Source: Macrostomum lignano
Lineage: Eukaryota
Length of the DNA stretch: 64,000 nt
Reading direction: 5' to 3'
Assembly (NCBI GenBank): GCA_002269645.1
Contig: NIVC01000124.1
Span: 259,443-323,442 of the forward strand
A program made the translations under genes and the position numbers. The notes beneath the pieces are model-generated. The model made no database searches and had not been told where the DNA came from. It worked only from the letters and a program-made list of their open reading frames with translations. Each line of letters opens with the position of its first letter. The stretch's first letter is position 1. Below are positions 8,229 to 64,000 of this stretch, piece by piece.

Positions 8229-8393
8229 TGTAAGATGGTTTGCTTAGTTGATTGCGTGTGCGCACGTTCACTAGCTCTTATGTACATTTGCTCGCTGTAC
8301 AATGATAATATATAAGTGAATGCCTTGGCGCCCTGGGCAGCCAAGAGTCGGTCTACGCCTTAAGCCAATTTCTCGTTTTCGCTTGTTCTTACA
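8229..8393 (+). repeat. 3' LTR (165 bp)
   Basis: See 5' LTR. Confidence 0.95.
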
Positions 8394-18183: not shown

Positions 18184-18384
18184 TTATATTGAGAATGGCT
18201 ATAAGCCTATTCAGTACCTTGTTTGTTTTTATGTGAGAAAGTCTATCTGCTCAGAGAAATGAGCTACTAAAAGAGCACAAAATGTACTGCACATTCTCTG
18301 TTGCTTGATGAGAACAATGCGTATGGCTGATAAAAAATCTGTAAAGTCTGAAGTGTGATGTCCAACACGAGGAAAAAAGGAGGA

Positions 18385-20245: not shown

Positions 20246-22960
20246 TCAGTGCCTGATAAGTCTCACAGTGAAACAGGCAATGGCGGCCAGAACAAAGACC
20301 TGACAGGCTGACAAAGACCCCAGCTGACTGGCTGACTTGTACCAATCGTCTGGGGGGCAGTTATTGCCCCATCCGACACTGACTCCGTTCTCCTTGTTCT
20401 TGGCCGCAATGTAGGTCTGGAGCGGTGCGAAATAGTCAAGCAGGGGTTTGGCGCTGATCTGCCGTGTGCCGCTGATCTTGAACAGGGCCTCCTCCCAGTG
20501 CAGCGAGGTGCCGCTCTCCAGCAGGGCTCTGAAAGTTTGTTTGTTAATAATATAAACATAAAAAATATGAACTTAATCTCGTAATAACTTCACCTGTAGC
20601 TAATTGATGCTAATTACACATGTAGCTAGCTAATTGATGCTAATTACACCTGTACCTAATTGATGCTAATTACACCTGTACCTAATTGATGCTAATTACA
20701 CCTGTACCTAATTGATGCTAATTACACATGTAGCTAGCTAATTGATGCTAATTACACCTGTACCTAATTGATGCTAATTACACATGTAGCTAATTGATGC
20801 TAATTACACCTGTAGCTAGCTAATTGATGCTAATTATACATGTAGCTAATTGATGCTAATTACACCTTTAGCTAATTGATGGTAATTACACCTTTAGCTA
20901 ATTGATGCTAATTACACCTTTAGCTAATTGATGCTAATTACACCTTTAGCTAATTGATGCTGGATGCTGCTAGCGGATGTTAATTGCGACTATTTCGACT
21001 TTTGTGGTAAAAATTAAAAGTTCAAAAATAGACAGATTTTATTTGCAACTGAACATTTAATAACTGTTTTAAGGGGCATTCAAAAATTCGGTTTTTTTAC
21101 AAAAAGAGTTCGACCCGCACTCACTTGAGCTTTGCGCCGGCGGCAGAGTTGCCGTAGATGCTGCATTTGTGAAAATTTTCCGTTACACCTGCGGCCTGGC
21201 ACAGCGACTGGTGGAATTGAAACTGCAGCAGTAGGCTGAGAAAGTATCTGAAAATTATTCAAACTTTTTTCAGCCAAAAATTCAATTTAAGCCGATAAGA
21301 ATTTTGCTTTAGCGGTGTATTGGTTGGCTTGGCAACAAGTGAAGAAAACAAACATTTGACCGAGTGCTATACCCTAGTTAGGAGGTATTTCGAGTTGATA
21401 GAATTTGTTTAACATTTTCAAAATGACTTTTAACCGTCTTTTATCAAAGTTTTTTTCGTCTAATTTGAAAACTCTGCCTGCCGAAACCTGGCTATTTTAA
21501 TTACTCAATTCTTGCATGAACCAAGTTTCTAGCAGAATTATTCTCACAATTAACATCGAATATTATTAGTCTTTATTATGAGTCATGTAATGCGGCAAAA
21601 GGCCTAAAAACATATTTTTTTAAGTTGCACACGTAATTAACGCCAAATTTTGTGTTTCAAATTGACGTCAAATTTTGTGTTTCAAATTGGCGCCTAATTT
21701 ATTGTTTAAAGCCATAATAAAGCCACCTGAACTCGCCTCATGTACTCCACATTGGCAACCACGTGATAAATAGCGCCGGCATCAAAGTCCTCTTCCGATC
21801 GCAACACCGGACTGGAAACCCCCATCAGTTGGCAGCGCTGGTTCACCCATTCGCTGTTCCACAGATTCTTGGGCACCACGCCTTTGAACAGCTTGTACCT
21901 GTAGGTTTGTCGATGGTGTAAGTAGGCAGAGGTATACAAATTCTCCACAAGATTCTTCTTCTCGGGATTCCCTCCCCAAGACACCCATCGCCGAGATTCC
22001 CCTCCGGAACTTCCTTTCCTGAGTTTTCCCTTCCTGAAATTAAACCTTCCCGGGATTCGCCTTCCCGGGATTCCCCTGACCGAGATTCCCCTTCCCGGGA
22101 TTCCCCTTACCGGGATTCCCCTTACCGGGATTCCCCTTACCGGGATTCCCCTTACCGGGATTCCCCTTACCAGGATTCCCCTTACTGGGATTCCCCTTAC
22201 CGGGATTTCCCTTACCGGGATTCCCCTTACCGGGATTCCCCTTACCAGGATTCTCCTTACCGGGATTCCCATTCCCGTGATTCCCCCTGCTGAGTTTTCC
22301 CATCCCGAGATTCTCTTCTTGAAAATCTCTCTCCATAGCTTCTACCTGTAGTTGTCAATCAAATAACCAAAAGGCAGGTAGGCGGCCTTCTTCAAAGCCA
22401 TGAGGAACAGAGAGTTCAGGTAGAACTCATCGGATTCGCTGTCCGATTCAAGCAGGCCGAGTTTTCTCAGATGCCCCGGGGTCATGACTGACAGCTCGAT
22501 GGTGTCGCCGATAGCCTCGTGAAAACCGGGATTGGCGCCGTCTCGGAACACCACCGGCTGCTTCTCGTACTGTTGAAAGTATTGAATGTGGCCCATCTCG
22601 TGATGAGTCACCGCCAAATAGTGGCCGGTAATCTCCGTGCACTGCTTGATGCGGAAGTCGCCTTTATCAGTGTAGAAATCCCAAGCAGACGCGTGGCAGA
22701 CCATGTCAACTCCCGGCAGCTTCTCCAACACCGACTTCTCCCAGAAGGTGTCAGTCATGTTTCCCAAGCCGAGCGAGGCGAAGAAGTCTTGACTGGCTTC
22801 GAACATCTGTCTGACTGTCCAGTTCTGTTACGGGTTTCAAATGCAGACTCTTTATGCAAAATCTGACAGACAGACAGACAGACAGACAGACACTAAGGCA
22901 GACAGACAGAAAGACAGGCAGACAGACAGACAGACAGACAGACAGAAGGACAGACAGAAG

Positions 22961-23036
<76 letters not shown>

Positions 23037-23039
23037 CTA

Positions 23040-23076
<37 letters not shown>

Positions 23077-23079
23077 CTA

Positions 23080-23116
<37 letters not shown>

Positions 23117-23174
23117 CTAAGACAGACAGACAGACAGACAGACAGATAGACAGACAGACAGACAGACAGACAGG

Positions 23175-23216
<42 letters not shown>

Positions 23217-23251
23217 AACAGACAGACACTAAGACAGACAGACAGACACTA

Positions 23252-23283
<32 letters not shown>

Positions 23284-24027
23284 CGGCAGACAGACAGACA
23301 GACAGACAGACAGACACTAAGACAGATAGACAGACAGACAGACAGTCAGCCTCACCTTCTCCCTCATCACTTTGGTGACGTCGATCTGCGGCTCATTGGG
23401 AAACGGTTTCGTAAACGGCTCCAAATCGTCCCAGCGTCCGCCCCACATGTGTCCGAGAATGTGTCCGGGAATGTGACCGGTCGGCGGGAAGATGCTAGCC
23501 GGGTATTTCTGCATCAAAGCGTGCCTCACATAGCCGTGCAGCTCCTTGTACAGCGGCAGCAGGCCGTTGAACAACTCGGACATAACCTGCTCGAAATCCT
23601 GGCCCTCCTTGGGCTCGTACCAGCTCTGCCAGTACTTGGCGAAATTCGCGTAGCCAGCCTCCTTAATCATCTCGTTTGCCAGATCGACGTACTCCTCGTA
23701 CATCTGCTTCACCGGCCTGCCGCTGGCGTCCCTCCAGCGAGACCACAGAGCCTTCTTGACCGCTTCGCTGACGTCAGGGCTGGCCATCAGGCTGACGACT
23801 TTAATGAATTGTGAATGAAGTTATTTGATAGCAAAATGAGACAGACAAACTCTGAATGTACTTTTAGAAATTTGATGGCTAGAAATCTTTTCAAAAGCGC
23901 GCACCTCGTGACAGGGGAATTGGCTCCCCGGTGTCTGGATGCTCCACGGTGGCTGTGCTCTCAATTCGAATCATATCGCTCCTCAGCTGACCGAACTGCA
24001 GGGGGGGGGGGAAAGCTGCCGTTTGTC

Positions 24028-24075
<48 letters not shown>

Positions 24076-24081
24076 GTCTTA

Positions 24082-24119
<38 letters not shown>

Positions 24120-24125
24120 GTCTTA

Positions 24126-24175
<50 letters not shown>

Positions 24176-24178
24176 TAG

Positions 24179-24263
<85 letters not shown>

Positions 24264-24267
24264 GCCA

Positions 24268-24342
<75 letters not shown>

Positions 24343-24718
24343 CATCCAGCCTCACCCGAGTCTGCTTGGCCTCATCCGTCACAATCGATGTCCCAATATC
24401 GGCAGCCTTGGTGAACATTCGTTTAAGCCGCTCGTTGCCCAGGTTGGCCCAGTCGAACCGCTGGTCCATCTCCTGCCGCTTGCCGAGCATGAACTGGCTC
24501 AGCTGCAGTCTGGCTGCCAGTTCGGCCATCTTATTCTCCTGATTGATGTCCGTGTTGGACGCCCAGCTGGCTTCCACCACCTTGTTCAGGAGTATCCTGT
24601 GCTCCCCGCTGAACTGCTCAAACCATAACGTTGCCTCCGTTACATTCGTACTCTTGCTGCCAGCCAGACTGACTGCTGCTAGAAGCAAACAGCTTAGCAG
24701 AAGAGATCTCCGCGTCAT
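20246..24718 (-). CDS. ACE: Angiotensin-converting enzyme-like zinc peptidase (M2), single domain, 647 aa, 7 exons (ACE-A copy 1)
   Basis: Exons 24718-24356, 23995-23905, 23798-23356, 22824-22346, 21898-21737, 21247-21125, 20528-20246 splice into 1944 nt without stops. Signal peptide; HHEMGH zinc motif; [12 protein letters not shown]; [15 protein letters not shown]; hydrophobic C-terminus. Confidence 0.93.
20590..20955. repeat. 26-bp minisatellite GCTAATTGATGCTAATTACACCT(G/T)TA in ACE-A intron 6
   Basis: Direct reading; homologue ~37295-37780. Confidence 0.93.
21990..22320. repeat. 15-bp CCGGGATTCCCCTTA minisatellite in ACE-A intron 4
   Basis: Same family as the ACE-B intron-1 array; homologue ~38800-39290. 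Confidence 0.9.
22862..23345. repeat. (GACA)n array in ACE-A intron 3
   Basis: Direct reading; homologue ~39838-40742. Confidence 0.96.
24030..24340. repeat. (TGTC)n array in ACE-A intron 1 (reverse complement of the intron-3 array)
   Basis: Direct reading; homologue ~41421-41778. Confidence 0.96.
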
Positions 24719-25163
24719 TACCTTCACTTTGAGAGGCAAATTTCACACACGAGTTAGAAATTTTCTGTTGCAACAACGCCATAATAGTTGGCTTTTAATT
24801 TCTGCGAATTTAGATAAACCTGGAAGGTTTTTGCGCGCGGCGGGCTATCTTGTACAATCAGACCACGTGACTTGATTGCAGTGCGGCCTGAGGGTTACTG
24901 TGCAGCGTGCAGCCAAACTGCTACATGTAAGCCATTTGGAATCAGTCAGTCAGTCAGTCAGTCAGTCAGTCAGTCAGTCAGTCAGTCAGTCAGTCAGTCA
25001 GTCAGTCAGTCAGTCAGTCAGTCAGTCAGTCAGTCAGTCAGTCAGTCAGTCAGTCAGTCAGCCAGTCAGTCAGTCAGTCAGTCAGTCAGTCAGTCAGTCA
25101 GTCAGTCAGTCAGTCACCCACTCACTCAAGTCAGTCAGTCAGTCAGTCAGTCAGTCAGTCAGT

Positions 25164-34547: not shown

Positions 34548-36948
34548 TTATATTGAGAATGGCTATAAGCCTATTCAGTACCTTGTTTGTTTTTATGTGA
34601 GAAAGTCTATCTGCTCAGAGAAATGAGCTACTAAAAGTGCACAAAATGTACTGCACATTCTCTGTTGCTTGATGAGAACAATGCGTATGGCTGATAAAAA
34701 ATCTGTAAAGTCTGAAGTGTGATGTCCAACACGAGGAAAAAAGGAGGAAGAGTGATGTGTCAGATTAGTGAAGAATGATGTGTCAGATTATGGAAAGAAT
34801 AATGTGTCAGATTAGTGAAGAATTATTTGTCAGATTATAGAAAGAATGATGTGTCAGATTAGGCATGAATGATGTGTCAGATTACGGAAAGAATGATGTG
34901 TCAGATTAGGCATGAATGATGTGTCAGATTATGGAAAGAATGATGTGTCAGATTATGGAAAGAATGATGTGTCAGATTATGGAAAGAATGATGTGTCAGA
35001 TTATGGAAAGAATGATGTGTCAGATTATGGAAAGAATGATGTGTCAGATTATGGAAAGAATGATGTGTCAGATTATGGAAAGAATGATGTGTCAGATTAT
35101 GGAAAGAATGATGTGTCAGATTATGGAAAGAATGATGTGTCAGATTAGTGAAGAATGATGTGTCAGATTATGAAAGGAATGATGCGTCAGATGATGGAAG
35201 GAATAATGTGTCAGATTAGGCATGAATGATGTGTCAGATTAGTGAATAATGATGTGTCAGATTATGGAAAGAATGATGTGTCAGATTATGGAAAGAATGA
35301 TGTGTCAGATTATGGAAAGAATGATGTGTCAGATTATGAAAAGAATGATGTGTCAGATTATGGAAAGAGTGATGTGTCAGATTATGAAAAGAATGATGTG
35401 TCAGATTATGAAAGAGTGATGTGTCAGATTATGGAAAGAATGATGTGTCAGATTAGTGAAGAATGATTTGTCAGATTATGAAAAGAATGATGTGTCAGAT
35501 TTTGGAAAGAATGATGTGTCAGATTATGAAAGAGTGATGTGTCAGATTATGAAAAGAATGATGTGTCAGATTATGAAAGAGTGATGCGTCAGATTATGAG
35601 AAGAATAATGTGTCAGATTATGGAAAGAATGATGTGTCAGATTATGAAAAGAATGATGCGTCAGATTATGGAAAGAATGATGTGTCAGATTATGGAAAGA
35701 ATGATGTGTCAGATTATGGAAATAATGATGTGTCAGATTATGAATAGAATGATGTGTCAGATTATGAGAAGATGATGTGTCAGATTATGGAAAGAATGAT
35801 GTGTCAGATTATGAATAGAATGATGTGTCAGATTATGGAAAGATTGATGTGTCAGATTATGGAAAGAGTGATGTGTCAGATTATGAAAGAGTGATGTGTC
35901 AGATTATGAAAAGAATGATGTGTCAGATTATGAAAGAGTGATGTGTCAGATTATGAATAGAATGATGTGTCAGATTATGGAAAGAGTGATGTGTCAGATT
36001 ATGAAAAGAATGATGTGTCAGATTATGGAAAGAGTGATGTGCCAGATTATGAAAAGAATAATGCGTCAGATTATGAAAGAGTGATGTGTCAGATTATGAA
36101 AGAGTGATGTGTCAGATTATGAAAGAGTGATGTGTCAAGCTAGTAAAGTGTCAGCAAATTGAGGGGTTCATCATGAATCAATGTACTTACAAACGGTCTA
36201 TCCGAAAATTCTAAAGACCTTCTACATTTTTGAGGATCAGTCATTCGAGTAAAAATGTGTTTAGTACTATTCTAAACAGAAAGTTCTACAAGATCCCCCT
36301 GTAGTCAATCAATGCCTTAAGTCAGGCCAAAGCAGTGCTTAAGACCCTAAAAGTTCTCTTGTGCTTGCTCAGCTCGCGTGAAAATTTCATAACGAGTTGG
36401 TTCTTCAACTCTCATTAGAGACACTCGGTTATATGAGTAGGATGCGATCAATAGGGCTCAATGCACTACTTTATTCAATGAGTAGTACAGAAGCTTTTAC
36501 ATCGTATTATATATTTGGTTTCTGATTACAATAGTGCGGTTGTGAAGTACGCGAAATATATCGGAATTCCGTTGTGAAGAGGTCCGCATATTACAGTTTA
36601 GATTTTGATTAAACTAAGGGCGAACTAGATCAAGAGGTGTCGGGCAGGGACAGAAATGTCGTTGGTGTCAGAAGGCGCTGAAATTTAGTGTCAAATTTTG
36701 GCACTGATATCTGGGTTGATTGCGCGCCAAATGATGTGTCAATTGGGCGTCAGAAGGGCACTGAGTTTATTGCCAGGACGGGCGCTAAGTTTATTGCCAG
36801 GAGGGGCCTGTAAATTTGTGTCAGGATGGGCGCTAAAATAAGTGTCAGGATGGCGCCAAATTTGATGTTTGCAGGGCTTGTTCATACTCATTAAGGAATT
36901 TTATCCTTACACTGGAAGGTTAACTGGAAGGCGTCAGAAGTCCGTCGA

Positions 36949-42156
<5,208 letters not shown>

Positions 42157-42408
42157 TACCTTCACTTTGAGAGGCAAATTTCACACACGAGTAAGAGATT
42201 TTCTGTTGCAACAACGCCATAATAGTTGGCTTTTAATTCCTGCGAATTTAGATAAACCTGGAAGGTTTTTGCGCGCAGCAGGCTATCTTGTACAATCAGA
42301 CCACGTGACTTGATTGCAGTGCGGCCTGAGGGTTACTGTGCAGCGTGCAGCCAAACTGCTAAGCCATTTGGAATCAGTCAGTCAGTCAGTCAGTCAGTCA
42401 GTCACTCA

Positions 42409-42444
<36 letters not shown>

Positions 42445-43372
42445 ATTCAGTCAGTCAGTCACTCAAGTCAGTCAGTCAGTCAGTCAGTCAGTCAGTCAGT
42501 CAGTCAGTCAGTCAGTCAGTCAGTCAGTCAGTCAGTCAGTCAGTCAGTCAGTCAGTCAGTCAGTCAGTCAGTCAGTCAGTCAGTCAGTCAGTCAGTCAGT
42601 CAGTCAGTCAGTCAGTCAGTCAGTCAGTCAGTCAGTCAGTCAGTCAGTCAGTCAGTCAGTCAGTCAGTCAGTCAGTCAGTCAGTCAGTCAGTCAGTCAGT
42701 CAGTCAGTCAGTCAGTCAGACAGTCAGTCAGTCAGTCAGTCAGTCAGTCAGTCAGTCAGACAGTCAGTCAGACAGTCAGTCAGTCAGTCAGTCAGTCAGT
42801 CAGTCAGTCAGTCAGTCAGTCAGTCAGTCAGTCAGTCAGTCAGTCAGTCAGTCAGTCAGTCAGTCAGTCAGTCAGTCAGTCAGTCAGTCAGACAGTCAGT
42901 CAGTCAGTCAGTCAGTCAGTCAGTCAGTCAGCCAGTTAGTCAGTCAGACAGTTCCCATTAAGCATCATGAATCCATCAGAGAAATTCGGTGAAAGCTGAT
43001 GCGGCACAAATATCCTCAATCCTATTTATTTACTTCATCATGGAGGCTGAACAGGCCATCAGGCTCCCAAATAGACCGCCAGTTTTCGGTCAGGAATGCA
43101 GAACAGTTTTACAACTGCGCAAGTGAACTGCTGGGCCACTCCGAGCTTTTAGAGGCAGGTGTGAGTGGCGCATCAGGTTAATTGCTGCATGGGGGTTGGG
43201 GGCTGATTGCCAAACACATCTTCTTCAGCTCTTCATCTGGGGGGTGGTGTCCCAACTGCAAATGGAAAACACAGAAAGCCCCCAACAAAATGCCAAGAAG
43301 ATAAAAAGGCAAAGTTTGAAAAATCAAGCAGAACAAGGGCTGTTTTGACCTGAATATCCCCTGCACAAAAGC

Positions 43373-50626: not shown

Positions 50627-52147
50627 GAAATTGAGGTTGTTGTTGTTGTTGAACTTGAGGTTGTCATTGTTATTTTTATTGATTTAATTGAGGCTGTTGT
50701 TTTTGAAATTGAAGTCGTTGTCGGTGTTGTCGGTGTTGAAATCGAAGTTATTGTTACTGTTGATGAAATTATAAGTTCTTTGTTATTGTTATTGTTAAAA
50801 TTGACGTTGCCGTTGTTTTTTTCAATTTGAAGTTGTACTTTTATTATTGTAGGGGTCATGTACGGCTGAACCCTTGGCTAACATCAGCGGGCCAAATACA
50901 ATTTGTCATTAGTACTGTAAGTAACTGTAAGCGCCAGAAACGGCAGGGCAGGAGTAATGGGATCAAAAGCAAGGAAAGGTGCACGTGGAAAAAATGGCAC
51001 AGCGAAGGTGGACAGCTCGATCGGTTTCCGCATTATGCCTTATTTATTTTTATTAGATTGTCGTCCAGAGCTTAAAAGTTGTTCCGCAGCAACAGTTGCC
51101 GCATAATTTCACCGAAATGCTTTCATATTTCTGCTAACTCTGTCTGTCCTTCACCAGCTTTTAGAATGATTTGCCATCTTTCTTTGACGGGAGAAGCATC
51201 CTCATTGGCCATTCCTTCTAGAAGAAAAAATGCAAAAGCAATTAGCTGCAGATTCCTGCACTCCAGCCGAAATTGCAATACGATTTATCTTTGCCTCGGC
51301 ATCAACTGCTGGCTGCTGCCGCCGATACTGACGGGTCCTGTGGAGTTTCATCGCTCTTTTGAGTCAAGGAGGGTCTGGGAGCTGCGAGGGTGGCGGTAGC
51401 TCAGCAACTGAGAATCTGGGAGGCTGGCCCAGCAACTGTAGGAGGATCTTGAAGGCTGGCCCAGCAACTGAGGATCTGGGAGGCTGGTCCAGCAACTGAG
51501 GATTTAGGAGGCTGGCCCAGCAACTGAGGATCTGGGAGGCTGGTCCAGCAACTGAGGATTTAGGAGGCTGGCCCAGCAACTGAGGATCTGGGAGGCTGGC
51601 CCAGCAACTGAGGATCTGGGAGGCTGGTCCAGCAACTGAGGATTTAGGAGGCTGGCCCAGCAACTGAGGATCTGGGAGGCTGGCCCAGCAACTGAAGATT
51701 TTGGAGGCTGGCTCAGAAACTGAGGATCTGGGAGGCTGGCCCAGCAACTGAGGATCTGGCTAGCCCAGCAACCGAGAATCTGGGAGGCTGGCCCAACAAC
51801 TGAGGATCTGGGAGGCTGGCCCAGCAACAGAGAATCTGAGAGGCTAACCCAGCAACTGAGGATCTGGGAGGCTGGCCCAGCAACTGAAGATTTAGGAGGC
51901 TGGAATGGATCAGCAACTGAGGATCTGGGAGGCTGGCCCAGCAACCGAGGATTTGGGAGGCTGGCCCAGCAACTGAGGATCTGGGAGACTGGATCAGCAA
52001 CTGAGGATCTGGGAGACTGGATCAGCAACTGAGGATCTGGGAGGCTGGATCAGAAACGGAGGATCTGGGAGGCTGGTGGCCTAGATAGAAACTGAGAATA
52101 ATCCAGCGCCCCATCACCGCCTCTCCAGCATCCCCAGCTCAGTCGGC

Positions 52148-52594
52148 ATGGCCGGCCGCAGCTGCAGCCTGCAGGACTCGCAGGCCCTCCGTGAGGCCTA
52201 CTCAAGCAGCGAATGCGACTCAACATCTTCATCCTCATCGAGCTCTGAGAGCCTCTCCAGCTGCAGCAGCAGCGACTCTGAGGGATCCGACGATTGCTCA
52301 GCTTCCTCGAGTGCTTCATCAACGTCTTCATCCTCCTTCGAAGGATCGGTTCAGGTCGACAGCGTGTCGACAGATCGCCGCCCCGACTCCGATCAGTTGA
52401 GTTTCATCGATTTGCGAGGCGCCAGGAGGCGCCAAGATCGGCGCCAAGATCGGCGCCAAGATCGGCGCCCGCTGAGCGCGCTGTCAGAGGAGTCCACCGA
52501 GAGTGGCGACGGCAGCGCTTCGGCGTCAGCTGCTGCTGCATCGGCAGCAGCGGCAGCAGCTGGGCCTACAGCTATCGCACTGCCAGTTATATGA
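52148..52594 (+). CDS. Unit-3 copy of the Ser-rich hypothetical ORF (altered C-terminus)
   Basis: Homology to 17701-18183. Confidence 0.33.
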   Translation: MAGRSCSLQDSQALREAYSSSECDSTSSSSSSSESLSSCSSSDSEGSDDCSASSSASSTSSSSFEGSVQVDSVSTDRRPDSDQLSFIDLRGARRRQDRRQDRRQDRRPLSALSEESTESGDGSASASAAAASAAAAAAGPTAIALPVI

Positions 52595-52810
52595 TTTACT
52601 CAACATATCGGCGCTGGATTATCAAATAATATTGAGAATGGCTATAAGCCTATTCAGTACCTTGTTTGTTTTTATGTGAGCAAGTCTATCTGCTCAGAGA
52701 AATTAGCTGCTAAAAGTGCACAAAATGTACTGCACATTCTCTGTTGCTTGATGAGAACAATGCGTATGGCAGTAGAAGGCATGAGGGGGCTTCTGGGACA
52801 AAATTTTTCA

Positions 52811-53030
52811 CGTCCTCCATAATCCACCTAAATCCATCCATATTATCCCTGACAGAATCAGAAAAAAAGGGGGGTCGCACTCGCTCACAAAACGTCCTCC
52901 ATAATCCACCTAAATCCATCCATATTATCCCCGACAGAATCAGAAAAAAGGGGGGTCGCACTCGCTCACAAAACGTCCTCCATAATCCCATTAAATCCAT
53001 CCATATTATCCCTGACAGAATCAGAGCAGG
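52811..53030. repeat. 81-82-bp subterminal tandem repeat (~2.7 copies) in the presumed left TIR
   Basis: CGTCCTCCATAATCC.. starts at 52811, 52893 and 52974. Confidence 0.88.
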
Positions 53031-53215
53031 TGTCCACTGATACCTGTTATGCTCACTGACACCGACATCCACCCATAGCATGTTCGAAACAATCAGAAAA
53101 TAATCTGCATTCTTCTCCCCACATTCAATCCGCAACGTGCTACCACATCCCAAAGACTTTAAATCATCAGCGCAGGGTCCTTACCCTTTGAAAAAAAATT
53201 AAATTCTCAATAAAA

Positions 53216-53458
53216 ATGTTTCCAGTTGTCTCTCCGGGTTCTTATTACAAAGCGGACGAGCCTAATTACAAGAGCAAGTACCGATGCAAACTAGAATGCA
53301 GCGAGTACATGAGAAAATATTGGCCCGGCATTGAAATCAATGTCCCTAATATTAATCTAGCTCTCCAAAGACACTGGTTTCATAAGTATGGAGTAACCTA
53401 CGTAAAAGATTACGACAGCTACTATAACTTTGCAGAAATCATTAAGCAATTGCGTTAA
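53216..53458 (+). CDS. 80-aa ORF with possible remote similarity to RNase T2 (catalytic residues not conserved)
   Basis: YMRKYWPGI..RHWFHKYG..YY resembles the T2 pattern MxxYWP..HEWxKHG..YF; compared from memory only. Confidence 0.35.
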   Translation: MFPVVSPGSYYKADEPNYKSKYRCKLECSEYMRKYWPGIEINVPNINLALQRHWFHKYGVTYVKDYDSYYNFAEIIKQLR

Positions 53459-53761
53459 AAAACATACTGAGTTCATTTATTCGCAAGTATATTTACATAA
53501 AACAGGAGGAAATAAGGAGGAAAGAGCAGACACTGAGTGTGCAGGGCTATCCGGCTGAGAATTTTCTTCCGCGACGTGCAAGCTAGTTGCAAGGTTGGAA
53601 ATGAAACAATCCAAAATCGATATTCTTCGGATTCAGAATAATATTGATTTTCCTCCCGGTCATTTTGTGAACAGCACTTTCCTGTATTGTCAGGAATTGG
53701 CACGAGTTTAAAAAAAATCCTGGAGATCCAGGAAAGTGTTTAGAAGACTACTATGAGTAGC

Positions 53762-54000
53762 TTACATTAATAAAATCCCAGAAAAAAATTGTTGATAACT
53801 AAGAAGTGAATCTTCATCAGCAACAAATGATCGGCGAAGTTCGTCAAACACCATTTCGGTTCTCATGGCATAGTTGCGATCCTGGGTCTCCATGGCCGCT
53901 CTTGAACGAATTCGCTGGTTCTCAACTTTTTCATTGAAGAAATTGTGGAGAACTTCTTGAATTCGCTCTGATGCCTGCTCGTCGGCATCTAATCCTTCAA
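53762..54000 (-). CDS. Hypothetical Polinton ORF (start uncertain)
   Basis: Charged helical-looking reading frame in the ORF track; no recognised motif. Confidence 0.25.
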
Positions 54001-54407
54001 CAAGGCGACCGTCGTGGAGATTTTCTAGGTCGGTCGAGTAGAACGTAATTTTTTTGTGAACTAAAAACAAAGATTTAATTAAAATAAGAGAATTTTCAAT
54101 TCTTAACACAGGATAGAATTTCAGTAAGTAAAAAAAACGAATAAACTTACAACATAATGAAATCAGCAGCCACAACGGTGCAGTATTGCGTGACGAAGAA
54201 CGTGTGCGAGCAAACTGAGCTGAATTTTCTTGCTTGCTTTAACTAGCTTCCGAGCGATCGATTCCCTCCACCCGCTTCCTTCCCTCCGGTTGTCAAAGCG
54301 GAAAGGAATGCACGCGTGGAACTTTGCGCTCCCTCAGAAAATAGCAGTTACCCCCCCCCCTTTCAAAATGCAGCTGTTGCGCTTGGCTGCGAATAATCTT
54401 TCCCGAC

Positions 54408-54908
54408 TCAAGCGTCTCTCTCAACCCCCAGCTCTTTCAGCAGTCTTCCTAGTACCTCGTTTGGAGCGCACAAAATAAACCCCGCTCCCGAGCGTCCGCC
54501 CTCTCTCCCAGTGCACCCGCCCTCTCTCCCCAAACACCCACCCTCGGCGTCCATTCCCAACCCTAACTTTGTTTTACCAAAAATAACAGCTTTAACTAGC
54601 TTCCGAGCGATCGACTCACGAAATCCGCTTGAAGCCCCTATATTGTCGAGTCTCCTGAGCATTTCTTTGTCCCAACGATTCTTCTCCTCAGGAAAATCTC
54701 TATACTTAACGTCGTGCCACATGCAGACAGAGTCTAGCTCGTTCACAGGCTCATGCCCAGGATGTGGATTATTGTTTTTATCTAGCTGTATTTCAAGTGG
54801 ATTCAAAGGCCCGCAATATTTATAGCCGGGAAGTGTCCAGCCTTTGTTCGGATGAGGAAGCTTTTCTATCAGTCCATGTGAATCTAACTTACCACCAGAG
54901 CGCTGCAT
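54408..54908 (-). CDS. Parvovirus-VP1u-type phospholipase A2, 166 aa
   Basis: Ca-loop GYKYCGPLN and catalytic NELDSVCMWHDVKY; ATG at 54908. Confidence 0.82.
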   Translation of the reverse strand: MQRSGGKLDSHGLIEKLPHPNKGWTLPGYKYCGPLNPLEIQLDKNNNPHPGHEPVNELDSVCMWHDVKYRDFPEEKNRWDKEMLRRLDNIGASSGFRESIARKLVKAVIFGKTKLGLGMDAEGGCLGREGGCTGREGGRSGAGFILCAPNEVLGRLLKELGVERDA

Positions 54909-54938
54909 TATTTTATTTAAAATTTTCTTTTTAAATAA

Positions 54939-55976
54939 ATGACAGATCAGAAACTTAAAAAACTCTACTACAGCGACAAAGGTTTCTTTGTAGGCAAAAA
55001 TGCCGTTAGTAAACTCATGGAGCTGAGTAAGGAACCAAAAGCTAAAGTAGAAAAGTGGCTCTCTAAGCAAGCAGTCTACCAAGTCTATTTCCCACCAGTA
55101 AAATTTACAAGACCTCACTTTAGCATCTATAAACCTAATGAAGCGCACCAAGCAGATCTTTTGTTTCTCCCTAATGACTCAGGCTACAAGTATGCTCTCA
55201 CAGTAATAGACATTGCTTCCAGATATAAGGAAGCTCGCCCACTCAAGACGAAGAAGTCAGAGGTTGTTGCCAGCGCACTGCAAGATATTTATAAAAACTC
55301 TCCGCTCACATACCCCCAAATCTTTATGACCGACCCGGGTAAGGAATTCATGGGTGTAGTGAAATCCCTTATGGAAAAGAAAAACACAGAGATTCGCTAT
55401 GGCAGAACAAACTTGCACAGAGACCAGGCTTTTGTGGAAAGATTCAATCTAACTCTAGCCAAGAGACTATTCACTAAGCAGACAGCGCAAGAACTCAAAC
55501 TGAGTGCGGGGCAATACTATACCAAGTGGACAGAAAGACTCCCCATTGTTATAGAGCAACTGAACAATGAAGTCACACGTATGACTGGATTGAAACCGTC
55601 CCATGCAATTAAACAAGACACTGTCAAACTTAAGGCAACTCAAAGAACAGACAACAACACTACAACCCCACACAACACACACAACACAAAACACACCTCG
55701 AACTACCCTCAGCTTCCAGGAGTTGAATCACCATACATACTGACAAACTCTGAGTTTCTACGCTTTTTATATCTACCTGGAGAGCTAGAGAAAGACACCA
55801 AAAGAAGAGCTACAGATCCATACTTCAGCCTTGATGTACATAAAATAGACAGACATTTTACATCCGACTCTGGAGAGTATTACTTTTTATCTCAGGCCTT
55901 TAACCCTAAATCCCCCACGCGGTCATTCACTAGAGCTGAACTCCTAGTGATACCAGCTGACACAGAAATTAATTAA
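54939..55976 (+). CDS. int: Retroviral-like (rve) integrase of Polinton type, 345 aa
   Basis: HQADLLFL, LTVIDIASRY, MTDPGKEF, AFVERFN (DDE triad); frame intact. Confidence 0.93.
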   Translation: MTDQKLKKLYYSDKGFFVGKNAVSKLMELSKEPKAKVEKWLSKQAVYQVYFPPVKFTRPHFSIYKPNEAHQADLLFLPNDSGYKYALTVIDIASRYKEARPLKTKKSEVVASALQDIYKNSPLTYPQIFMTDPGKEFMGVVKSLMEKKNTEIRYGRTNLHRDQAFVERFNLTLAKRLFTKQTAQELKLSAGQYYTKWTERLPIVIEQLNNEVTRMTGLKPSHAIKQDTVKLKATQRTDNNTTTPHNTHNTKHTSNYPQLPGVESPYILTNSEFLRFLYLPGELEKDTKRRATDPYFSLDVHKIDRHFTSDSGEYYFLSQAFNPKSPTRSFTRAELLVIPADTEIN

Positions 55977-55993
55977 AATATTAAAATAAAAAA

Positions 55994-56440
55994 ATGACAA
56001 AGATTGAAACCAGAACCATCAATAAACTCAATAAAATCATTGAATCAAAGAGACCAGGTCTTATATCAATAAAAGGTGCCAAAGTAAAAGTCGATCCCGT
56101 GCAGCAAATAGTTCAGTGTAATGAGCAAAGACACAGCATCACAGATGAAAAGTTAGGAGGAATCCTACCATTAGCAGCTCTTATCCCGATTATTGCAGGC
56201 GCTGTAAGTGCCGCAGGTGGTGTAGCTGGAGGTGTAGCAACTGCTGTTAAAGCTGGGAATGATAGGGCCCACCAGCTTGAATTGCAAAAGATTGCAAGAG
56301 ACAAAGGTATAACAATTAAGGCAGGAGAGGGCTGCCCCGATCGTGATGATTGTGAGAATGAAAATTCTATAAGCAAGTCTGACATTGTCAAAGCAATCAT
56401 GACACTGCACAATGCTGGGTTTACAATAATGCGGATGTGA
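55994..56440 (+). CDS. Adenovirus core protein X (Mu precursor)-like protein, 148 aa
   Basis: GGILPLAALIPIIAGAVSAAGGVA resembles adenovirus pX GGILPLLIPLIAAAIGAVPGIA. Confidence 0.65.
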   Translation: MTKIETRTINKLNKIIESKRPGLISIKGAKVKVDPVQQIVQCNEQRHSITDEKLGGILPLAALIPIIAGAVSAAGGVAGGVATAVKAGNDRAHQLELQKIARDKGITIKAGEGCPDRDDCENENSISKSDIVKAIMTLHNAGFTIMRM

Positions 56441-56563
56441 TGAGGTTTAAAACCCCACTTTATCCAGCTTCATAAACCTAGCGCTACTTATAGGATGTAG
56501 AAACAGTTCAACTTTTCTATCAGGGTGGTCACCCTCAAAAATTTTTTTATTTTAGAGAAAAAA

Positions 56564-59500
56564 ATGCCAAAAGCTAATCCAGCAAAAGATTTAGTCAACA
56601 AACATTTTTCAAAAGGCGTCTCATTTCAAGACAAAAGTAATTTACTAAGAGAAGCATGTAAACAAAAGTTTAACACCGACCCTGGTCACCTGGGAAGCTA
56701 TGAAAAACAGTTGGAAATCATCAATCAATTAGAATCCAACCAATATGCGCCTATGCAAAATCCTGCAAAGGAACACCAAGAGAGGAGTCGCAACTTAGTT
56801 AACAAATATGAAACTCTTACTGGTGAAAAAGCAAAGTACCCACAAAATAAGCAGGAACAAGAGAAATTAGAGCAATTAATCCATTTAAAAGAGTCGGAGC
56901 TTGCCACTGAAGAGATTAATTTTGCACAGAGGAAGTTTACAGAACATTACATCGAGTACACAATCCCAATTAACGACACCAACGGTACCACCGCAAACAT
57001 CTACGACTATAAAGACAGCATCCAATCAGTTGTTGATCACACACTCAAAACACGCAAGACCTTTAAACTACAGATATCATTCAAGATTGCGTTTTATATG
57101 CCTGCAAAACCCACTGAGCATCTCGAGTATTACATGACAACAAAGGCAAAGCCATTCACCCCTACAGACACACTGATCCTTTCCTTCAAGATGTCACTAA
57201 GAAAATTGAAGCGTTTACATCCAGAGGTTCTGGATGGGTCGTGGGAGGGATTCAAAGAGCGACTGTCATGGTCATGAAATATGACCCACTTAAAGCCTCC
57301 TCTTATATAGAGCTCCCGCATAAGCTAGCCGGCAAAAAAGCTTGCATAAATGTTAAAAATAAAGACAATTGCTGTGCTCTATGGGCAGTTCTTTCTGCAC
57401 TTCTTTATGATAGTGTCCCTCACCACCCCGAAAGAACCTCAAATTATCAAAATTATTTCAACTACTATCTCATCGAATGCGAAAAGAAGGGAATCAGGTT
57501 TGACAAAGGAGGCTTGGCGATCTCTCAGATCCCAAAGCTAGAAGAAGTGTTTAATAACAAAATTAGAATCACAGTCTTTGAATGGAGTGAAAAAACTGAG
57601 AAAGTTCAACCGGTCAGATGTAGCAAAGACGTTTTAGATCCGAGGGGAAAAGGCGGACTGAAGTGGATCTTCTAGTGATTGGTAATTTACTAGAGGAGGC
57701 TCACTATGTTTGGATTAAAGATCTTTCAAGACTCATTCACAAGCAGTTGAATAATCATCACGAGGCTGTTGCCATCTGCCGCTTGTGCCTTAAGCATTAC
57801 AGTGGACCTGAGCGCTTTGAAAAACTAACAGAGCATGAATTATCATGCGAGGATCACCCAACAAACTGCTCTCTTCCTTCAGCTGAAGAGAAGTATCTCC
57901 GGTTTAAGAACTATCACAAGATGGAGAAGCTCCCATTTGTTGTATATGCTGATTTCGAATGCTCAATCATGCCAGGAACTCAAAAATTAACTCAAAAACA
58001 AACTCAACTCAAAAACAAACTCAAACTCAAAAACATGTCCCCAACTCAGTAGCATATGCCTTTATTACTACAAAAGGACTTGTTGAGTATAATTATTTCT
58101 TTGGAGAGCAGTGTGTGGAGCAGTTTATTGCCAGAATGTTAGAGTTGCAAAGAGTAATTAGCACCCTTCAACCTGTTCCAATAAGTATGTCTGAGGAGGA
58201 TGAAAGCAATTTCCTATCAGCAACTCATTGCCACATCTGCAGGAAACATTTAACTTGCACTAATATTAAAAACCCCACCGTTAGGGACCACTGCCACTTT
58301 ACTGGGAAATTTAGAGGTGCAGCGCATAACACCTGTAATCTAAAGCTAAAATCGAACATTCATGATCTAACGATATTTTGTCACAACGCAAAGAACTATG
58401 ACATGCATTTAATAGTTGAAAAAATCGGCATGATTCCAGACATACACCTTGATTGCATCGCAGAGAACAAGGAGAAGTTTAAGTGTGTTGATATTAAACA
58501 GGATAATTCGGGTACAGGTAAAATAAGACTGAAGGATTCATATCAATTTCTAGCTGCCAGTCTAGACGAACTAAGCAAGAATCTAAAAGATGAACAATGT
58601 ACATATACAAAGATGTTTGCAAGTAAAATTACAACAGTGATGAATCATTTAAACTCCTGAGAACCAAAGGCTTCTACCCTATGAAAATATTACTGGGTAT
58701 CACGTATTTGAAGAAGGTTTACCACCACAGGAGAAGTTCTTTTCAAAGCTAACAGACTCTGGAATCTCTGACAAAGACTATGAGCACGCGAAGCATGTCT
58801 ATAATTACTTTAATTGTCAAAACTTCTTCCAGTATCACCTGCTTTACCTCTACACAGATGTGTTTCTGCTGGCTGATGTGTTTGAAACCTTCAGATACAC
58901 CTGGTACACAGCATATGGCCTCGATCCAGCACATTATGTGTCTCTGCCTGCCACTAGCTGGGAATCTTTGCTTAAAATGAAATGGGATCAAGATCCAGAT
59001 TGGTACATTGAACTTCTTACAGACATTGACATGTACAATTTTGTCGAATCGTCAAAGCGAGGGGGATCTCAATTTGCGTTAACAGGTATGCAAAAGCAAA
59101 CAATCCCTACATTGAATCTTACAATAAGGAGCAGCCCTCAAACTACATTACTTACTTGGACGCTAATAATCTCTACGGGTGGCGATGAGTCAAGATCTTC
59201 CAGTTAGAGATTTTCGATGGCTACCCTCATCAGAATTCAAATGGGACTTTTCATTGGCTGCCATTTATGAGTTGATGTTTACATTCCACCAGAGCTTCAC
59301 GACTATTTCTCTGACTTTCCACCCTTCCCAGAGAACATCAAGTGCCCGAAAATAATCGAAACTCCCAATGATAATAATGGAACTTGGCACCTGTCAGGAA
59401 CAGAAAAAGAACATACAGAGAACTAACACAGAATCTAAACAACAAGACACGTTACAAAATCCATTACAAACTGCTTCAGTATTTTATCTCACTTGGTTGC

Positions 59501-60430
59501 AGGGTCACCAAAGTTCACCGGGCTCTTACATTTACAGAGGAAGCGTGGATGAAACCCTACATTGATAAGAACACCCAGTTTAGGACCAAAGCAACCAACG
59601 ACTTTGACAAGAACCTCTTTAAGTTGGCCAACAACTCTGTCTATGGCAAGACTCTTGAGAATGAGCGGAAAAGAACAAACCTGAAACTTGTTACCTCATC
59701 AGAGCCTGCTGTTATTCAGGCAAATATGTCAAAGCCAACATTCAAAGAACTCCATATCTTTAATAGCTACTTAGGTGTGATCATATTTTACAAAACCAAG
59801 GTGACGCTGCGCAAGCCGATCTATACAGGTGTCACTGTTCTCGACGAATCAAAACGTCTGATGTACCAGTTCTTCTATGGCATGAAGCAGCAGTACAAGG
59901 ATAAAATGAAACTCTTGTACACTGACACAGACAGTTTTATTATGGACATTCAAACAGAAGACATTTATCAGGACATGCTGCAGCAAAAAGATTTGTTTGA
60001 CTTGTCTGAGTATGATGAATCTTGCAGGACACAGAATGGCGATCAAGTGTTTGACGCTACTAACAAGAAAGTGATTGGGAAAATGAAGGACGAGATTGCT
60101 GGTGACATAATCACTGAATTCATTGGGTTGAGAGCAAAGTCCTATTTTGTAAAATGTGAGTCGTCAGACCCAATTAAAAAATCAAAGGGAATTCCGAAAC
60201 GTGTGGTTAGGAAGGAAATTAATGAAGCTGAATACAGAGACGCCTTGAATTGCAACAAAAAGACATCACATGAGTTCTCAAAGCTACAATCTAAAAACCA
60301 TATTATTCACACAATTCAGCAAAAGAAGATTGGTCTGTCAGGTGCAGATAACAAGAGATTCATTTTTGATGACAATATTAACAGTCTACCGTTCGGGCAT
60401 TGGAGATTAGGCTTAGGAGATTGGGTTTAG
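56564..60430 (+). pseudogene. polB: Protein-primed DNA polymerase B with endonuclease-VII-like insert, split by about ten single-base frameshifts
   Basis: SRGSGW; CHICRK..VRDHCHFTGKFRGAAHNTCN; CHNAKNYD; KGFYP(YE); YLDANNLYGW(AMS); KLANNSVYGKT; YTDTDS, reassembled across frames. Confidence 0.9.
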
Positions 60431-60503
60431 GAGGTTGAGGTTGGGTTTAGGAGATTAGGAGATTGGGTTTAGGTTTAAGAGAAAGTTTAATAAAACTCAA
60501 AAA

Positions 60504-60904
60504 ATGACGACAAATAACTTTCTGGAAGATTTGGCTAACGAACTGGAAATCCCAAACTTTAGAGGAATATTTATGAGGGACACTCTGCCTGATTTTCCTC
60601 TAAGAAAGGAATGCGGCATCATGAACTTTGACACCACCGATAAGCCAGGATCTCATTGGGTTTGCTGGGTGATTGATCCCGATCGCAAGCACAAGTGTTA
60701 TTACTTCGATAGCTATGGGACGGCAGTACCAGAAGAGCTAAGAAATTATATGAAGGGAAAAAAAATAAAAAAATTTATCGCTCAGACTTTATTCTCCAAG
60801 GTCTTAGCAGTGATATTTGCGGTGAGCTGTGCATGACTGTTTTGTATGCAATGACCAAAACACGAAAGACCTACAAGGAAATTATTCGTACCTGTGTTTC
60901 ATAG
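60504..60904 (+). CDS. pro: Adenain-like cysteine protease with one frameshift in the A-runs near 60757-60774
   Basis: GSHWVC, YYFDSYG; the shifted frame supplies LQGLSSDICGELC. Confidence 0.88.
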
Positions 60905-60907
60905 GGT

Positions 60908-61558
60908 TCATTGTGCATTTCTCGTTGTCCTTACCGAATTTCTCGTTGTCCTTCTTTCCGCATAATGTTGAAGAACTTTCTCGAGTTCATTTCTCAGCTG
61001 ACTCATGTCATCAGTACCGACCATGTTCAAGTTCATTCGAATTGATTGTTCATAAAGATCCTGAATGGTTTTGAACTCATCCTCTGAAATGAACTTATCC
61101 TCGATTGCCCTTGAAATGTACCCTATGATTGAAGTGTGCACCCCTTTCTCTTTTACTTGCTTCTCCTGTAGCTGCTTTAGTTTTTTTCGCCTGTTTCGCG
61201 CTAATGCTCCAGTAATTGCTGAAATAAGTCCACATGCAGCACCACAGAGCCGAGCGGGATTGCGATTGGGGCTGTGATGACTGGCAACACTGAGACAGCT
61301 GCAGCAGACCAGTAGAACACACACAGATCCTAGAATCATATTGCTGTAGTCGAAAAATTTACAGTGGCTGTCATAGCGCTTAATTTTCTTTGTGTTGTGG
61401 AAAATATTTTTTTCAAGATCATCTCGCATTTTTTGAATCTCCACTAGTCGAAACTGCTGAGAGTTACAAGTAATGACGGGGTAGAGTTTTTGTTGCTCAT
61501 ATTGAGGTGCATTCAGATTCGGTGCATTCAGGCTTTGTGTGTTCGAATTCGGTGCCAT
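60908..61558 (-). CDS. Polinton protein with coiled coil and Cys-rich double hydrophobic segment (unknown function)
   Basis: Intact 216-aa ATG-initiated ORF; two hydrophobic stretches (MILGSVCVLLVCCSCLSVA; LCGAACGLISAITGAL). Confidence 0.7.
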   Translation of the reverse strand: MAPNSNTQSLNAPNLNAPQYEQQKLYPVITCNSQQFRLVEIQKMRDDLEKNIFHNTKKIKRYDSHCKFFDYSNMILGSVCVLLVCCSCLSVASHHSPNRNPARLCGAACGLISAITGALARNRRKKLKQLQEKQVKEKGVHTSIIGYISRAIEDKFISEDEFKTIQDLYEQSIRMNLNMVGTDDMSQLRNELEKVLQHYAERRTTRNSVRTTRNAQ

Positions 61559-61799
61559 TGGTTTGGTGCTGTCGGTATTTTAGGTTCAACGTATTGAGAC
61601 TGATCGTATAGAGAATTTTGTTGGGCCATTTTTTTCTCTAGAAAAAATAAAAAAATTAAAAACTACCCGGTTGAAAGATCTGTTTTCTTTTTGATAATTC
61701 CATCTGCACCGCCGGTTGTCTAGGCGGCTCTCGTGACGCCGGAGGATCGCGAGTCCAGCAGGCAGCGGCTGGGCGGCTGACGTTTGAGAGCGTGCCGGA

Positions 61800-62380
61800 T
61801 TACTCCGGGGGGTCCAGAGCTCCTTCTACTCGATCTGTAGACATGACCGGACGAGCAGTAGATTCTGCTTCATCAATAGCAATATCACGAAGATTGAGTG
61901 TTCTCTCCAGACGATCAAGCCTCCTTAGTATTTTACCCCAAGAGCTATACATTCCGTTTAGATAGCTACTGTGTGATACATCCTTTCTCTTTAATGCTTC
62001 AAGTCTTTCTTTGATTCGATCATGCAACGATGTTGACTGAGTCATGAACTCTTCTAAATTCCTCACTTTACTGTGTTGGTTGCGACGTTTTCTTTAATTC
62101 TATCATGCAACGCTGTTGACTGGTTCATGAACTCTTCTAAATTATTCACTTTAGCTGTGTTTGTGAAAACTCCTCCTTCAAGAATACGCATCCGTCTATC
62201 AGTGGAATTTCCCAGAAGATTAACTGTGATCTTAAGCGTTGATTGCGAGACTATCGAAGTTATTTCTGACCTAAGTTCATTAGTTGCGTTTAACAACGGC
62301 ACATAAAGCTTATCACTTTCAAACTTCTGCCTAGCTACTTTAAGCCTGAGATCTTCCATGTTTATTTGCAACTGGTGCAT
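61800..62380 (-). CDS. Hypothetical coiled-coil protein with an internal 28-aa duplication; one 1-bp frameshift near 62066
   Basis: Adding one A (GTA AAA GTG) fuses ORFs 62063-62380 and 61800-62066 and puts both NLEEFMxQSTxLHDRIKE repeats in frame. Confidence 0.55.
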
Positions 62381-62548
62381 GGAGCGCTCAGGGCTTTCAG
62401 TCTGTTTTTATTCAGTTTGATCTCTGGGATCTTTTCGTCGCTGTTGATATATCGCCTGTCAAGGATGGATATTTGAGCTGATGTAAGAGCGCTGTTGCCA
62501 GAAATGGATTCACCTGCAAAGTTTATCGACATCTTTTAATAGCAAATT

Positions 62549-63348
62549 TTAAATTACAGTTCTTTTTTCTTTGCTGATAATCACAAACTGGTAAGGCTGA
62601 TTCCACTTGTCATAGCAAAGATTAACGAATTCCTCTTGTGAAATCTTTCTGCTTGAGTTTTTTGTTGGATTTATGAAATAGGCAGGCGCAATGACCTCAT
62701 TGTAAAATCTTTTTAGCCTGTCCTGTGGAATGGTTGGAAACAGGAGAATCAGATTGCAGTTCCCACGAATTGTTTTGTTCGGGAGCTCGAACCAATTCTG
62801 TGCAATGTAAATTACATTACAATTGTTATGTCGCCCTCTTGTAAAATAGTTTTCTATCTGCTTCTGTGGGCCTGTCATACAATCATCAAAGACGATCAAA
62901 TGCTTTCTCCCCTTTTCTAGCTCATCTGGTTGGGGTAGAAGTTTGGTCTTTGGATCAGCCTGTGGATCTCCATAGGTGAACACTTTAATGTTCTGCCATT
63001 TTTCATTGTCTTTGAGGTGCTTTGCATATTCAGGCAGCTACAATTTCAGGGTTACTGGGAAGGCATTTGTTGGTTATTAAAACATGCAATAATGTCCTCT
63101 TTGTTCAGCTTGTTTTGAATCCAGAAATCAGCATTTTATACTCATCTTGATACAGTGTGGGAGAGTAGATGTGCAGAGTGTCATAGTCGATAAAGCCAGG
63201 TCTAAGAAGCATGTTAAAGACTCTGAATGTTTTACCTGAACCTGATGAACCAACAACAATGCATCTGAAGTGACTCGGATTGACTCGTGATGAGAAAACT
63301 TAATCTGATTACGCGTCCAGTGAGGATTGAAGTCGTTTGAAAGTCCAT
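62549..63348 (-). CDS. atp: DNA-packaging ATPase (A32/FtsK-like), frameshifted
   Basis: Walker A GSSGSGKT (63228-63251); Walker B LIVFDDC; RGRH and AQNWF motifs. Confidence 0.88.
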
Positions 63349-63392
63349 TTTTTCTATGATGAAAAAAAAATTAAATAATAAATAATTTAGAG

Positions 63393-63490
63393 TGTGTCAT
63401 TTCGGGACTTGATGTGTCATTTTGGGACTTAGATGTGTCATTTTGGGACTTAGATGTGTCATTTTGGGACTTAGATGTGTCATTTCAGAC
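63393..63490. repeat. 21-bp tandem repeat GATGTGTCATTTTGGGACTTA (~4.5 copies), intergenic in the Polinton
   Basis: Direct reading. Confidence 0.9.
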
Positions 63491-63582
63491 TAGTCTTATT
63501 ATCTTACTATGTCTTGTACCCTGAAAGTACCCTTTAGTCAAATTTGAAACCGCTTCCCTTTTTAATGCTAGCTCTCATCTTC

Positions 63583-64000
63583 TCATAGACTGCAGGGTCC
63601 ACATGTCTGGATTTGGGGCCAGCGGGCCAGCTTGAATCTCTGTTTAGGTGTTACAGTATCCTTTATCTTTTTGGCTGCTGTGGCTACACTGCCAGCCGCT
63701 TCGGCAACGTTCTTGATGTTCTCTTTGTTCTCTCCAATGACCTTAAAAATCTTGGCCCCTGAGCGATCAAATCGGCAACCGTTCCCTGAGCGTTCTTTTC
63801 TTGGATAGTGGCCTGCAGGGAAAAGTCCAGATCCGCGTTTAATGAGATTAAGTTCCTCTTTGTCATAGTATTTGTCAATGTCTTTTCGAAAATAAATGGC
63901 ATTTTTACTTGAAATAAATTATTTTTTGTTGAACCGTGAAAGCAGAAGCTCTCTCGCCTCTTATCGATGTATTTTCTCTCAAGCATTTTATTGAGGATGT
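63583..64000 (-). CDS. 3' part of a basic hypothetical Polinton ORF, probably frameshifted
   Basis: ORF-track frame 63684-63986; an adjacent frame gives NVAEAAGSVATAAKKIKD. Confidence 0.3.

Follow-up and report, generated by a model that had tools for sequence, protein, structure and literature searches.

Does the abrupt change of sequence after position 52770 in a 64,000-nucleotide stretch of Macrostomum lignano contig NIVC01000124.1 (the window) mark the end of a mobile element, and had the host gene array beside it already been duplicated when that element arrived? Up to this position the window holds an array of units with ACE genes; from 52771 to 64000 it holds what is very probably the left 11.2 kb of an adintovirus-type Polinton/Maverick, likely inserted by its integrase into one unit of the already duplicated array. 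The junction, the end motif, the gene set, the empty paralogous sites and the many near-identical copies in four sequencing runs are observed, and are taken up in turn below.

The junction and its empty paralogous sites

Self-comparison with tandem repeats masked revealed a head-to-tail array with units of ~17 kb each, which continues beyond the left edge of the window and stops at 52770. GCGTATGGC occurs three times in the window, with last bases at 18327, 34691 and 52770 (0.12 copies are expected by chance, and three were reached in none of 100 shuffles), and the flanks of the three units align with ~2% differences up to the junction base. Beyond this base units 1 and 2 continue into TGATAAAAA, which is host DNA, whereas unit 3 reads AGTAGAAGG from 52771. 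Because the two sides of the junction share no letters, it can be placed to a single base. An initial annotation of the window had described an exactly mappable left end and two empty paralogous sites, both of which we recover; its element start at 52765 has to be moved to 52771, the TATGGC at 52765-52770 being host DNA.

The junction was positioned by the paralogs, without recourse to any terminal motif, and the element then opens with AGTAGA, five of six letters of the (AGT)2 terminal motif reported for vertebrate Mavericks in the available text of PMC8097293; Polinton ends are of the (AGT)2 or (AG)3 type. AGTAG would stand at this position by chance with a probability of ~0.001. Since two sister ACE units lack the element at the same site, the insertion is likely recent.

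Gene content of the element

The Polinton or adintovirus identity proposed in the initial annotation is borne out by the genes for an integrase, PolB, protease, ATPase, phospholipase A2 (PLA2)-like and adenovirus protein-X (pX)-like protein found in the element (Table 1), and on five tested features, PolB, integrase, ATPase, adenain and end motif, its sequence classes it as a Polinton. Searches returned 548 integrase homologues at E<=1e-30 and 521 PolB homologues at E<=1e-20, the best of the latter being 47-49% identical over their full length and covering 56.7-60.4 kb of the window. The Pfam matches of PolB, protease and ATPase all lie under the curated cut-offs. Scans with a PolB alignment retrieved 32 viral and 80 metagenome loci (112 related loci); a single-sequence PolB scan and an integrase-alignment scan of viral contigs returned no relative, and the element's initial 20 bases had no match in viral contigs.

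The PolB motifs Exo I-III and Pol A-C are present, spread over several pieces, together with an HNH-like motif. A profile of 60 homologues recovers ten window pieces in order, joined by nine shifts in the same direction, with no same-frame stop between neighbouring pieces. An endonuclease VII-like insert (PF02945) is found in PolB and likewise in seven of ten close full-length homologues; homing-endonuclease inserts in polinton PolBs are noted in the available text of PMC11071308. PF03175 is weak or absent in the window pieces and in these ten homologues (best E 2.7e-19; none in six of the ten), which would fit a Beta-like enzyme. Pfam gave no N-terminal OTU domain on the N-terminal PolB pieces or the ten homologues (the source paper used HHpred), and the PolB alignment had 0 matches in the PDB. 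The PolB phylogeny suggested in the initial annotation was taken as far as a quick tree of 53 rows, none of them a labelled Alpha/Beta reference, from which loci <5 kb and loci whose matches were short or contained stops were left out; the window forms a long branch inside no strongly supported group. Because the branch is long and the support not strong, we claim no placement for it.

The PLA2 and pX matches sit on two separate ORFs, not on one PLA2X, and Pfam gave no gasdermin match among the element proteins. The 216-aa protein is, by its sequence matches, a homologue of a conserved gene of related Polintons. Structure-based searches were of little help: the best PDB match of the ATPase piece (E 0.17) was not usable, and the ESM Atlas gave leads <0.9 for the 216-aa ORF and none for the 137-aa ORF. 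The last small ORF may be comparable to the "cupiennin-like" genes of adintoviruses, a likeness supported by none of our searches. A 42-bp direct repeat (86%; 54236-54277 and 54589-54630) duplicates the end of the PLA2-like gene, and contigs of runs X1 and X5 (see below) show a joint that skips the 353 bases between its copies.

Family copies in public sequencing runs and the age of the insertion

Twenty-four public runs were listed under one organism code, and four, X1, X5 and X6 among them, were examined in detail, all as contigs. Twenty of the 24, from seven studies, contain 53-67% of the sampled words, which corresponds to a difference of 1.3-2.0% if evenly spread. In all four runs the element bins far exceeded the flank bin in depth: in X5, unbranched element contigs (236-354 nt, 0-7 differences) had depths of 1025-1431 vs 54-83 for flank contigs (15-23-fold), and in X6 the ratio was 28-62-fold. 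We read this contig depth, which is not itself a copy number, as tens of near-identical copies. Depth was raised over the left-end bins (first ~0.6-0.9 kb) in all four runs, with bins 2 and 3 deepest or nearly so, in line with a terminal inverted repeat (TIR) whose partner would lie outside the window. About three 81-bp direct repeats lie inside this left end, at 52781-53024.

Flank contigs of X1, X5 and X6 cease to match exactly at 52770 and then run on in other letters. The X6 flank contig carries two unit-3 letters followed by 9 unmatched letters beyond 52770, a weak sign of a pre-insertion, empty sister allele. The many near-identical copies, together with flank contigs that leave the window at 52770, support the recent activity that the initial annotation had claimed for the family; the family appears to be young, and the filled site, though seen in the assembly alone, appears polymorphic or private. 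No pile-up of ends was found among the pieces listed, in which, being contigs, extrachromosomal ends cannot be revealed.

The order of events could also be reversed. In a Polinton older than the array, the duplication breakpoint would lie at the left end of the element, the "empty sites" would be unit-to-unit junctions, and unit 3 would be the last unit. This accounts for the window as well as insertion does: the array leaves the window at the left, so that its other boundary is out of view, unit sequence is not resumed within the window, and 15 substitutions in 694 columns set unit 3 apart near the junction, more than the 6 in 733 between units 1 and 2. It is weakened by the run data alone, which nonetheless make it improbable. 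An old, fixed boundary would be expected in other samples as well, but the flank contigs listed continue past 52770 in other letters, none of the contigs listed crosses into the element, and the contig with two unit-3 letters appears empty; moreover, this copy differs by ~1.3-2% from family copies elsewhere, which does not exceed the divergence between units (1.9-2.2%). Insertion after the ACE duplication, as first proposed, is the likelier order, with an array ending at an older element as its rival.

The array has received another insertion, a Gypsy-type long terminal repeat (LTR) retrotransposon at 3077-8393 in unit 1 only (LTRs ~97% alike). It is flanked on either side by ATAC, a 4-bp target-site duplication (TSD), and its empty paralogue lies at 26163-26166. 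Its complete TSD and empty paralogue imply that some insertions in the ACE array came after duplication. Its pol gene has one in-frame stop (7322-7324), ahead of the integrase C-terminal domain, and no frameshifts.

Missing parts, frame breaks and assembly quality

Several observations weigh against the favoured reading. No piece spans the junction among the 32 listed (of ~20,600) from the four runs, and the six unit-3 flank letters are not displayed in any of these runs among the pieces listed, so that the filled site is known from the assembly alone; the evidence for an empty allele in X6 amounts to 9 letters, not displayed, in one contig of depth 5. Searched up to 64000, the window showed neither a second TIR nor another TATGGC junction, and unit sequence did not resume; neither tblastn nor profiles of 14 and 11 sequences matched a major or minor capsid gene in the 11.2 kb. 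PolB is in ten pieces, and the protease and ATPase genes are also broken. Uniform assembly error fails as the cause of these breaks, since the Gypsy pol is unshifted (chance 0.004 if breaks were uniform at an assumed count of 13 per 11.2 kb) and the host paralogues have just 1 one-base gap per kb.

That the filled site was not observed among the pieces listed from the four runs, that tandem repeats make up 44% of the window and that the one-sided frameshift pattern suggests a low consensus quality would all suit an assembly chimera, in which an ACE unit was joined to a Polinton copy from elsewhere. However, the switch is base-exact, lies away from minisatellites, has no sequence common to both sides and coincides precisely with the Polinton end motif. 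Because chimeras require shared repeats and would not select a terminus, we regard this explanation as very improbable.

The absence of a right end before 64000 is expected if the element exceeds the 11.2 kb in view. The capsid searches and the numerous frame breaks could instead be taken to indicate a relic that is truncated or lacks capsids, be it transpoviron-like or a deleted copy, without a right half. We hold this to be highly unlikely: ATPase, protease, pX-like and PLA2-like genes are retained, and accompany capsids in most related loci (of twelve loci of at least 9 kb, out of 38 such loci in all, whose ATPase and protease match those of the window, eight have a major and nine a minor capsid homologue), the family depth is high through the last bin, and 11.2 kb falls short of the 13-25 kb range given in the available text of 10.1101/2023.08.22.554363.

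As for the breaks themselves, one-sided shifts without nonsense codons point to long-read consensus error. Such error has been noted for coral polintoviruses too, in the available text of PMC11131425. The element shows 77 length differences from other copies; ten of the twelve listed are one-directional, most fall on or close to frame breaks, and other family copies therefore lack these breaks. A polishing failure in a high-copy repeat would reconcile the breaks in the element with its clean neighbours. On balance, the breaks are probably for the most part consensus errors in a young copy, and otherwise decay after insertion.

A candidate cargo segment near the left end

One segment, 53688-54481, is poorly shared with other copies: its coverage is 4- to 24-fold lower in three of the four runs, and less than ~2-fold lower in X6. 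It lies after the presumed left TIR and before the integrase, as Maverick cargo regions do. An intron-like GT..AG stretch of 90 nt (54150-54061, minus strand), recognised by sequence only, stands in frame within an ORF; a second intron-like GT..AG stretch (53720-53765, minus strand) is seen on the other side of the coding stretch. This coding stretch (53765-54060) gives a 74-aa match of 49% identity (E=2.6e-11) to a single unnamed protein, P0376, among 1.84 billion, and no match in the 112 related loci. A bacterial Ig-repeat protein (P0377) was rejected as a homologue, its match being a summed-repeat artefact. GC is 34-41% across the coding stretch and reaches 52-58% just at 54171-54570.

It is conceivable, though we think it rather unlikely, that an active, module-mixed Polinton family, its integrase from one lineage and its genes for packaging and entry from another, is still inserting and swaps a cargo slot beside the left TIR, which in this copy would hold a spliced orphan gene. 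If true, this would extend cargo carriage by Mavericks beyond nematodes, and the slot would matter more if its gene were spliced, host-derived and variable among copies.

The host array and feature coordinates

Across 24 paralogous segment pairs, which are not independent, 254 substitutions and 13 one-base gaps were counted in 13,030 columns (1.4-2.2% by pair class). The ACE genes are minus-strand, multi-exon and spliced; six of eleven tested ORFs match Pfam Peptidase_M2, and the proteins are 50-63% identical to metazoan ACEs (best 120 of 1354 matches). Because the flanking spliced genes resemble metazoan ACEs, the host is an animal. In units 1 and 2 the target site follows the ACE stop codon at a distance of 1.9 and 2.3 kb.

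Another ACE-like first exon, in divergent orientation, is present at 43349-43795 (plus strand; Peptidase_M2 E=3.6e-9). It has a paralogue near 1487-1912 and has mostly been lost by deletion from the unit at 24942-25333; the window gave no additional ACE exons on the plus strand. Minisatellites are abundant in the host units (1-52770), where their lengths vary between copies that are otherwise 98% identical, and the element has hardly any (634 of its 11,230 bases were masked). Left of the target site, a GC-rich stretch (17630-18183, 34015-34547 and 52077-52594) holds long open frames, serine-rich on the plus and acidic on the minus strand; its plus frame has no Pfam match.

Table 1. Coordinates of element and host features in the window, with the evidence for each.
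Feature	Position	Strand	Evidence or remark
Empty paralogous site, unit 1	18322..18336	+	GCGTATGGC matches and flank alignment
Host ACE (peptidase M2) gene, copy 1	20246..24740	-	5' limit approximate
Empty paralogous site, unit 2	34686..34700	+	GCGTATGGC matches and flank alignment
Host ACE (peptidase M2) gene, copy 2	36949..42180	-	Peptidase_M2, exon mapping
Host hexamer TATGGC	52765..52770	+	Adjoins junction; predicted left copy of 6-bp TSD (Polinton TSDs 5-8 bp, usually 6 bp; length from available text of PMC8097293)
Element left end, presumed TIR	52771..53600	.	Starts AGTAGA; probable inner limit between ~53335 and ~53690
79-aa ORF, family not known	53219..53458	+	Zero Pfam matches; zero matches in 112 related loci
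Segment poorly shared with other copies, candidate cargo	53688..54481	-	Run depth, ORF, intron-like stretch
Parvovirus-type PLA2-like gene	54408..54908	-	PF08398 E=2.9e-13; relatives in 10 of 112 loci
rve integrase, 345 aa, intact	54939..55976	+	PF00665 E=2.6e-8, above cut-off
148-aa protein, adenovirus protein-X-like segment	55994..56440	+	PF05829 E=7.9e-7
Protein-primed-type PolB with endonuclease VII/HNH-like insert	56564..60430	+	Ten frame pieces in assembly
Adenain-like maturation protease, two frames	60504..60904	+	PF00770 E=0.0039, under cut-off; tblastn E=4.7e-23 to L012 protease; motifs
216-aa protein, hydrophobic middle	60908..61558	-	blastp E=2e-8 to L012 177-aa ORF; E=0.001 to L038 209-aa ORF
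Coiled-coil-like ORF pieces, 83-bp internal repeat; family not known	61800..62407	-	ORF list, repeats
A32/FtsK-like packaging ATPase, at least two frames	62549..63350	-	PF04665 E=0.0013, under cut-off; tblastn E=2.8e-22 to L012 ATPase; Walker motifs
Small lysine/alanine-rich ORF pieces	63583..63903	-	Zero Pfam matches; just E=0.031 to L001 protein

Proposed mechanism and significance

Integration with a 6-bp duplication, protein-primed replication and jelly-roll packaging belong to Polinton biology as given in the available texts of PMC8502044 and 10.1101/2023.08.22.554363. By analogy, the rve integrase would join the TIR ends to host DNA at a staggered cut, so that TATGGC would come to flank the element at either end, and PolB, primed by protein at the TIRs, would replicate the linear genome after its excision. 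The ATPase, protease, protein-X-like and PLA2-like products may act in packaging, maturation and particle entry of a jelly-roll capsid, whose two genes would sit to the right of 64000.

To our knowledge, Polinton particles and transposition have seldom been observed in animals. With a young family present in many copies, and a filled site that can be set against empty sites of matching sequence, insertions can be dated and followed by a clean marker; for this species, public data from seven studies are available. Intact, recent Mavericks with 6-bp TSDs are described across many animals in the available text of PMC8097293. The present element is an ordinary example of a well-known kind, useful and not surprising, and its possible cargo and mixed gene modules are minor extras on known Polinton themes.

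Comparison with known systems

With Polintons/Mavericks (Polintoviricetes) the element shares the PolB and rve integrase, the A32 ATPase, the adenain, the AGT-type end and a multicopy presence in an animal genome; it differs in that the full set includes capsids, a TIR pair and a TSD, whereas here the left 11.2 kb alone is in view and genes are broken. An animal host, a divergent PolB and PLA2-like and pX-like genes are also found in adintoviruses with Beta-type PolB, as portrayed in the available text of PMC8502044 (Starrett et al.), which places PLA2X with the virion modules of the Alpha class, and GasderminX/cupiennin with Beta; the window instead pairs a PLA2-like gene with a Beta-like PolB and carries pX on a separate ORF. 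On its endonuclease VII-like PolB insert, the window could be a candidate for the nematode/oomycete pPolB2-HNH clade within Group 2 (Jeong 2023). In its low conservation, and perhaps in its intron-like stretch, the candidate cargo segment resembles the cargo region of nematode Mavericks (available text of 10.1101/2022.07.12.499685), but that cargo spans 2-5 kb of high GC whereas the window segment is ~0.8 kb with GC high in part, and within this segment we identified no host gene family and saw no fusogen.

Among the 112 related loci, matches were found to the ATPase in 19, the protease in 22, the integrase in 38 and PLA2 in 10. IMG/VR contigs L001, L012 and L019 and metagenome contig L086 have the same PolB type (39-43% identity in the C-terminal part), ATPase, protease, a pX-like gene and double jelly-roll capsids (PF21738 on L001 and L012), with a PLA2-like gene in L001, L012 and L086; their gene order is unlike that of the window, and for L001 and L012 the integrase match is partial (~33% over 120-170 aa). 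In contrast, nine of the 38 integrase-matching loci, of the L035/L038/L039 type, have integrases 37-47% identical over 200-340 aa and provide the nearest PolB rows by path in the quick tree, without strong support, but none of the nine (four of them at least 9 kb) has a match to the ATPase, protease or PLA2 of the window. L035 and L038 are themselves Polinton-like, with a window-like integrase, other ATPase and capsid types, and no protease match. The closest integrases overall are six proteins at 58-68%. Among the 112 loci the integrase of the window is thus closest to the L035/L038 type, while its ATPase, protease and PLA2 match the L001/L012 type; gene-module mosaicism is described as common in the available text of 10.64898/2026.10.13.758929.

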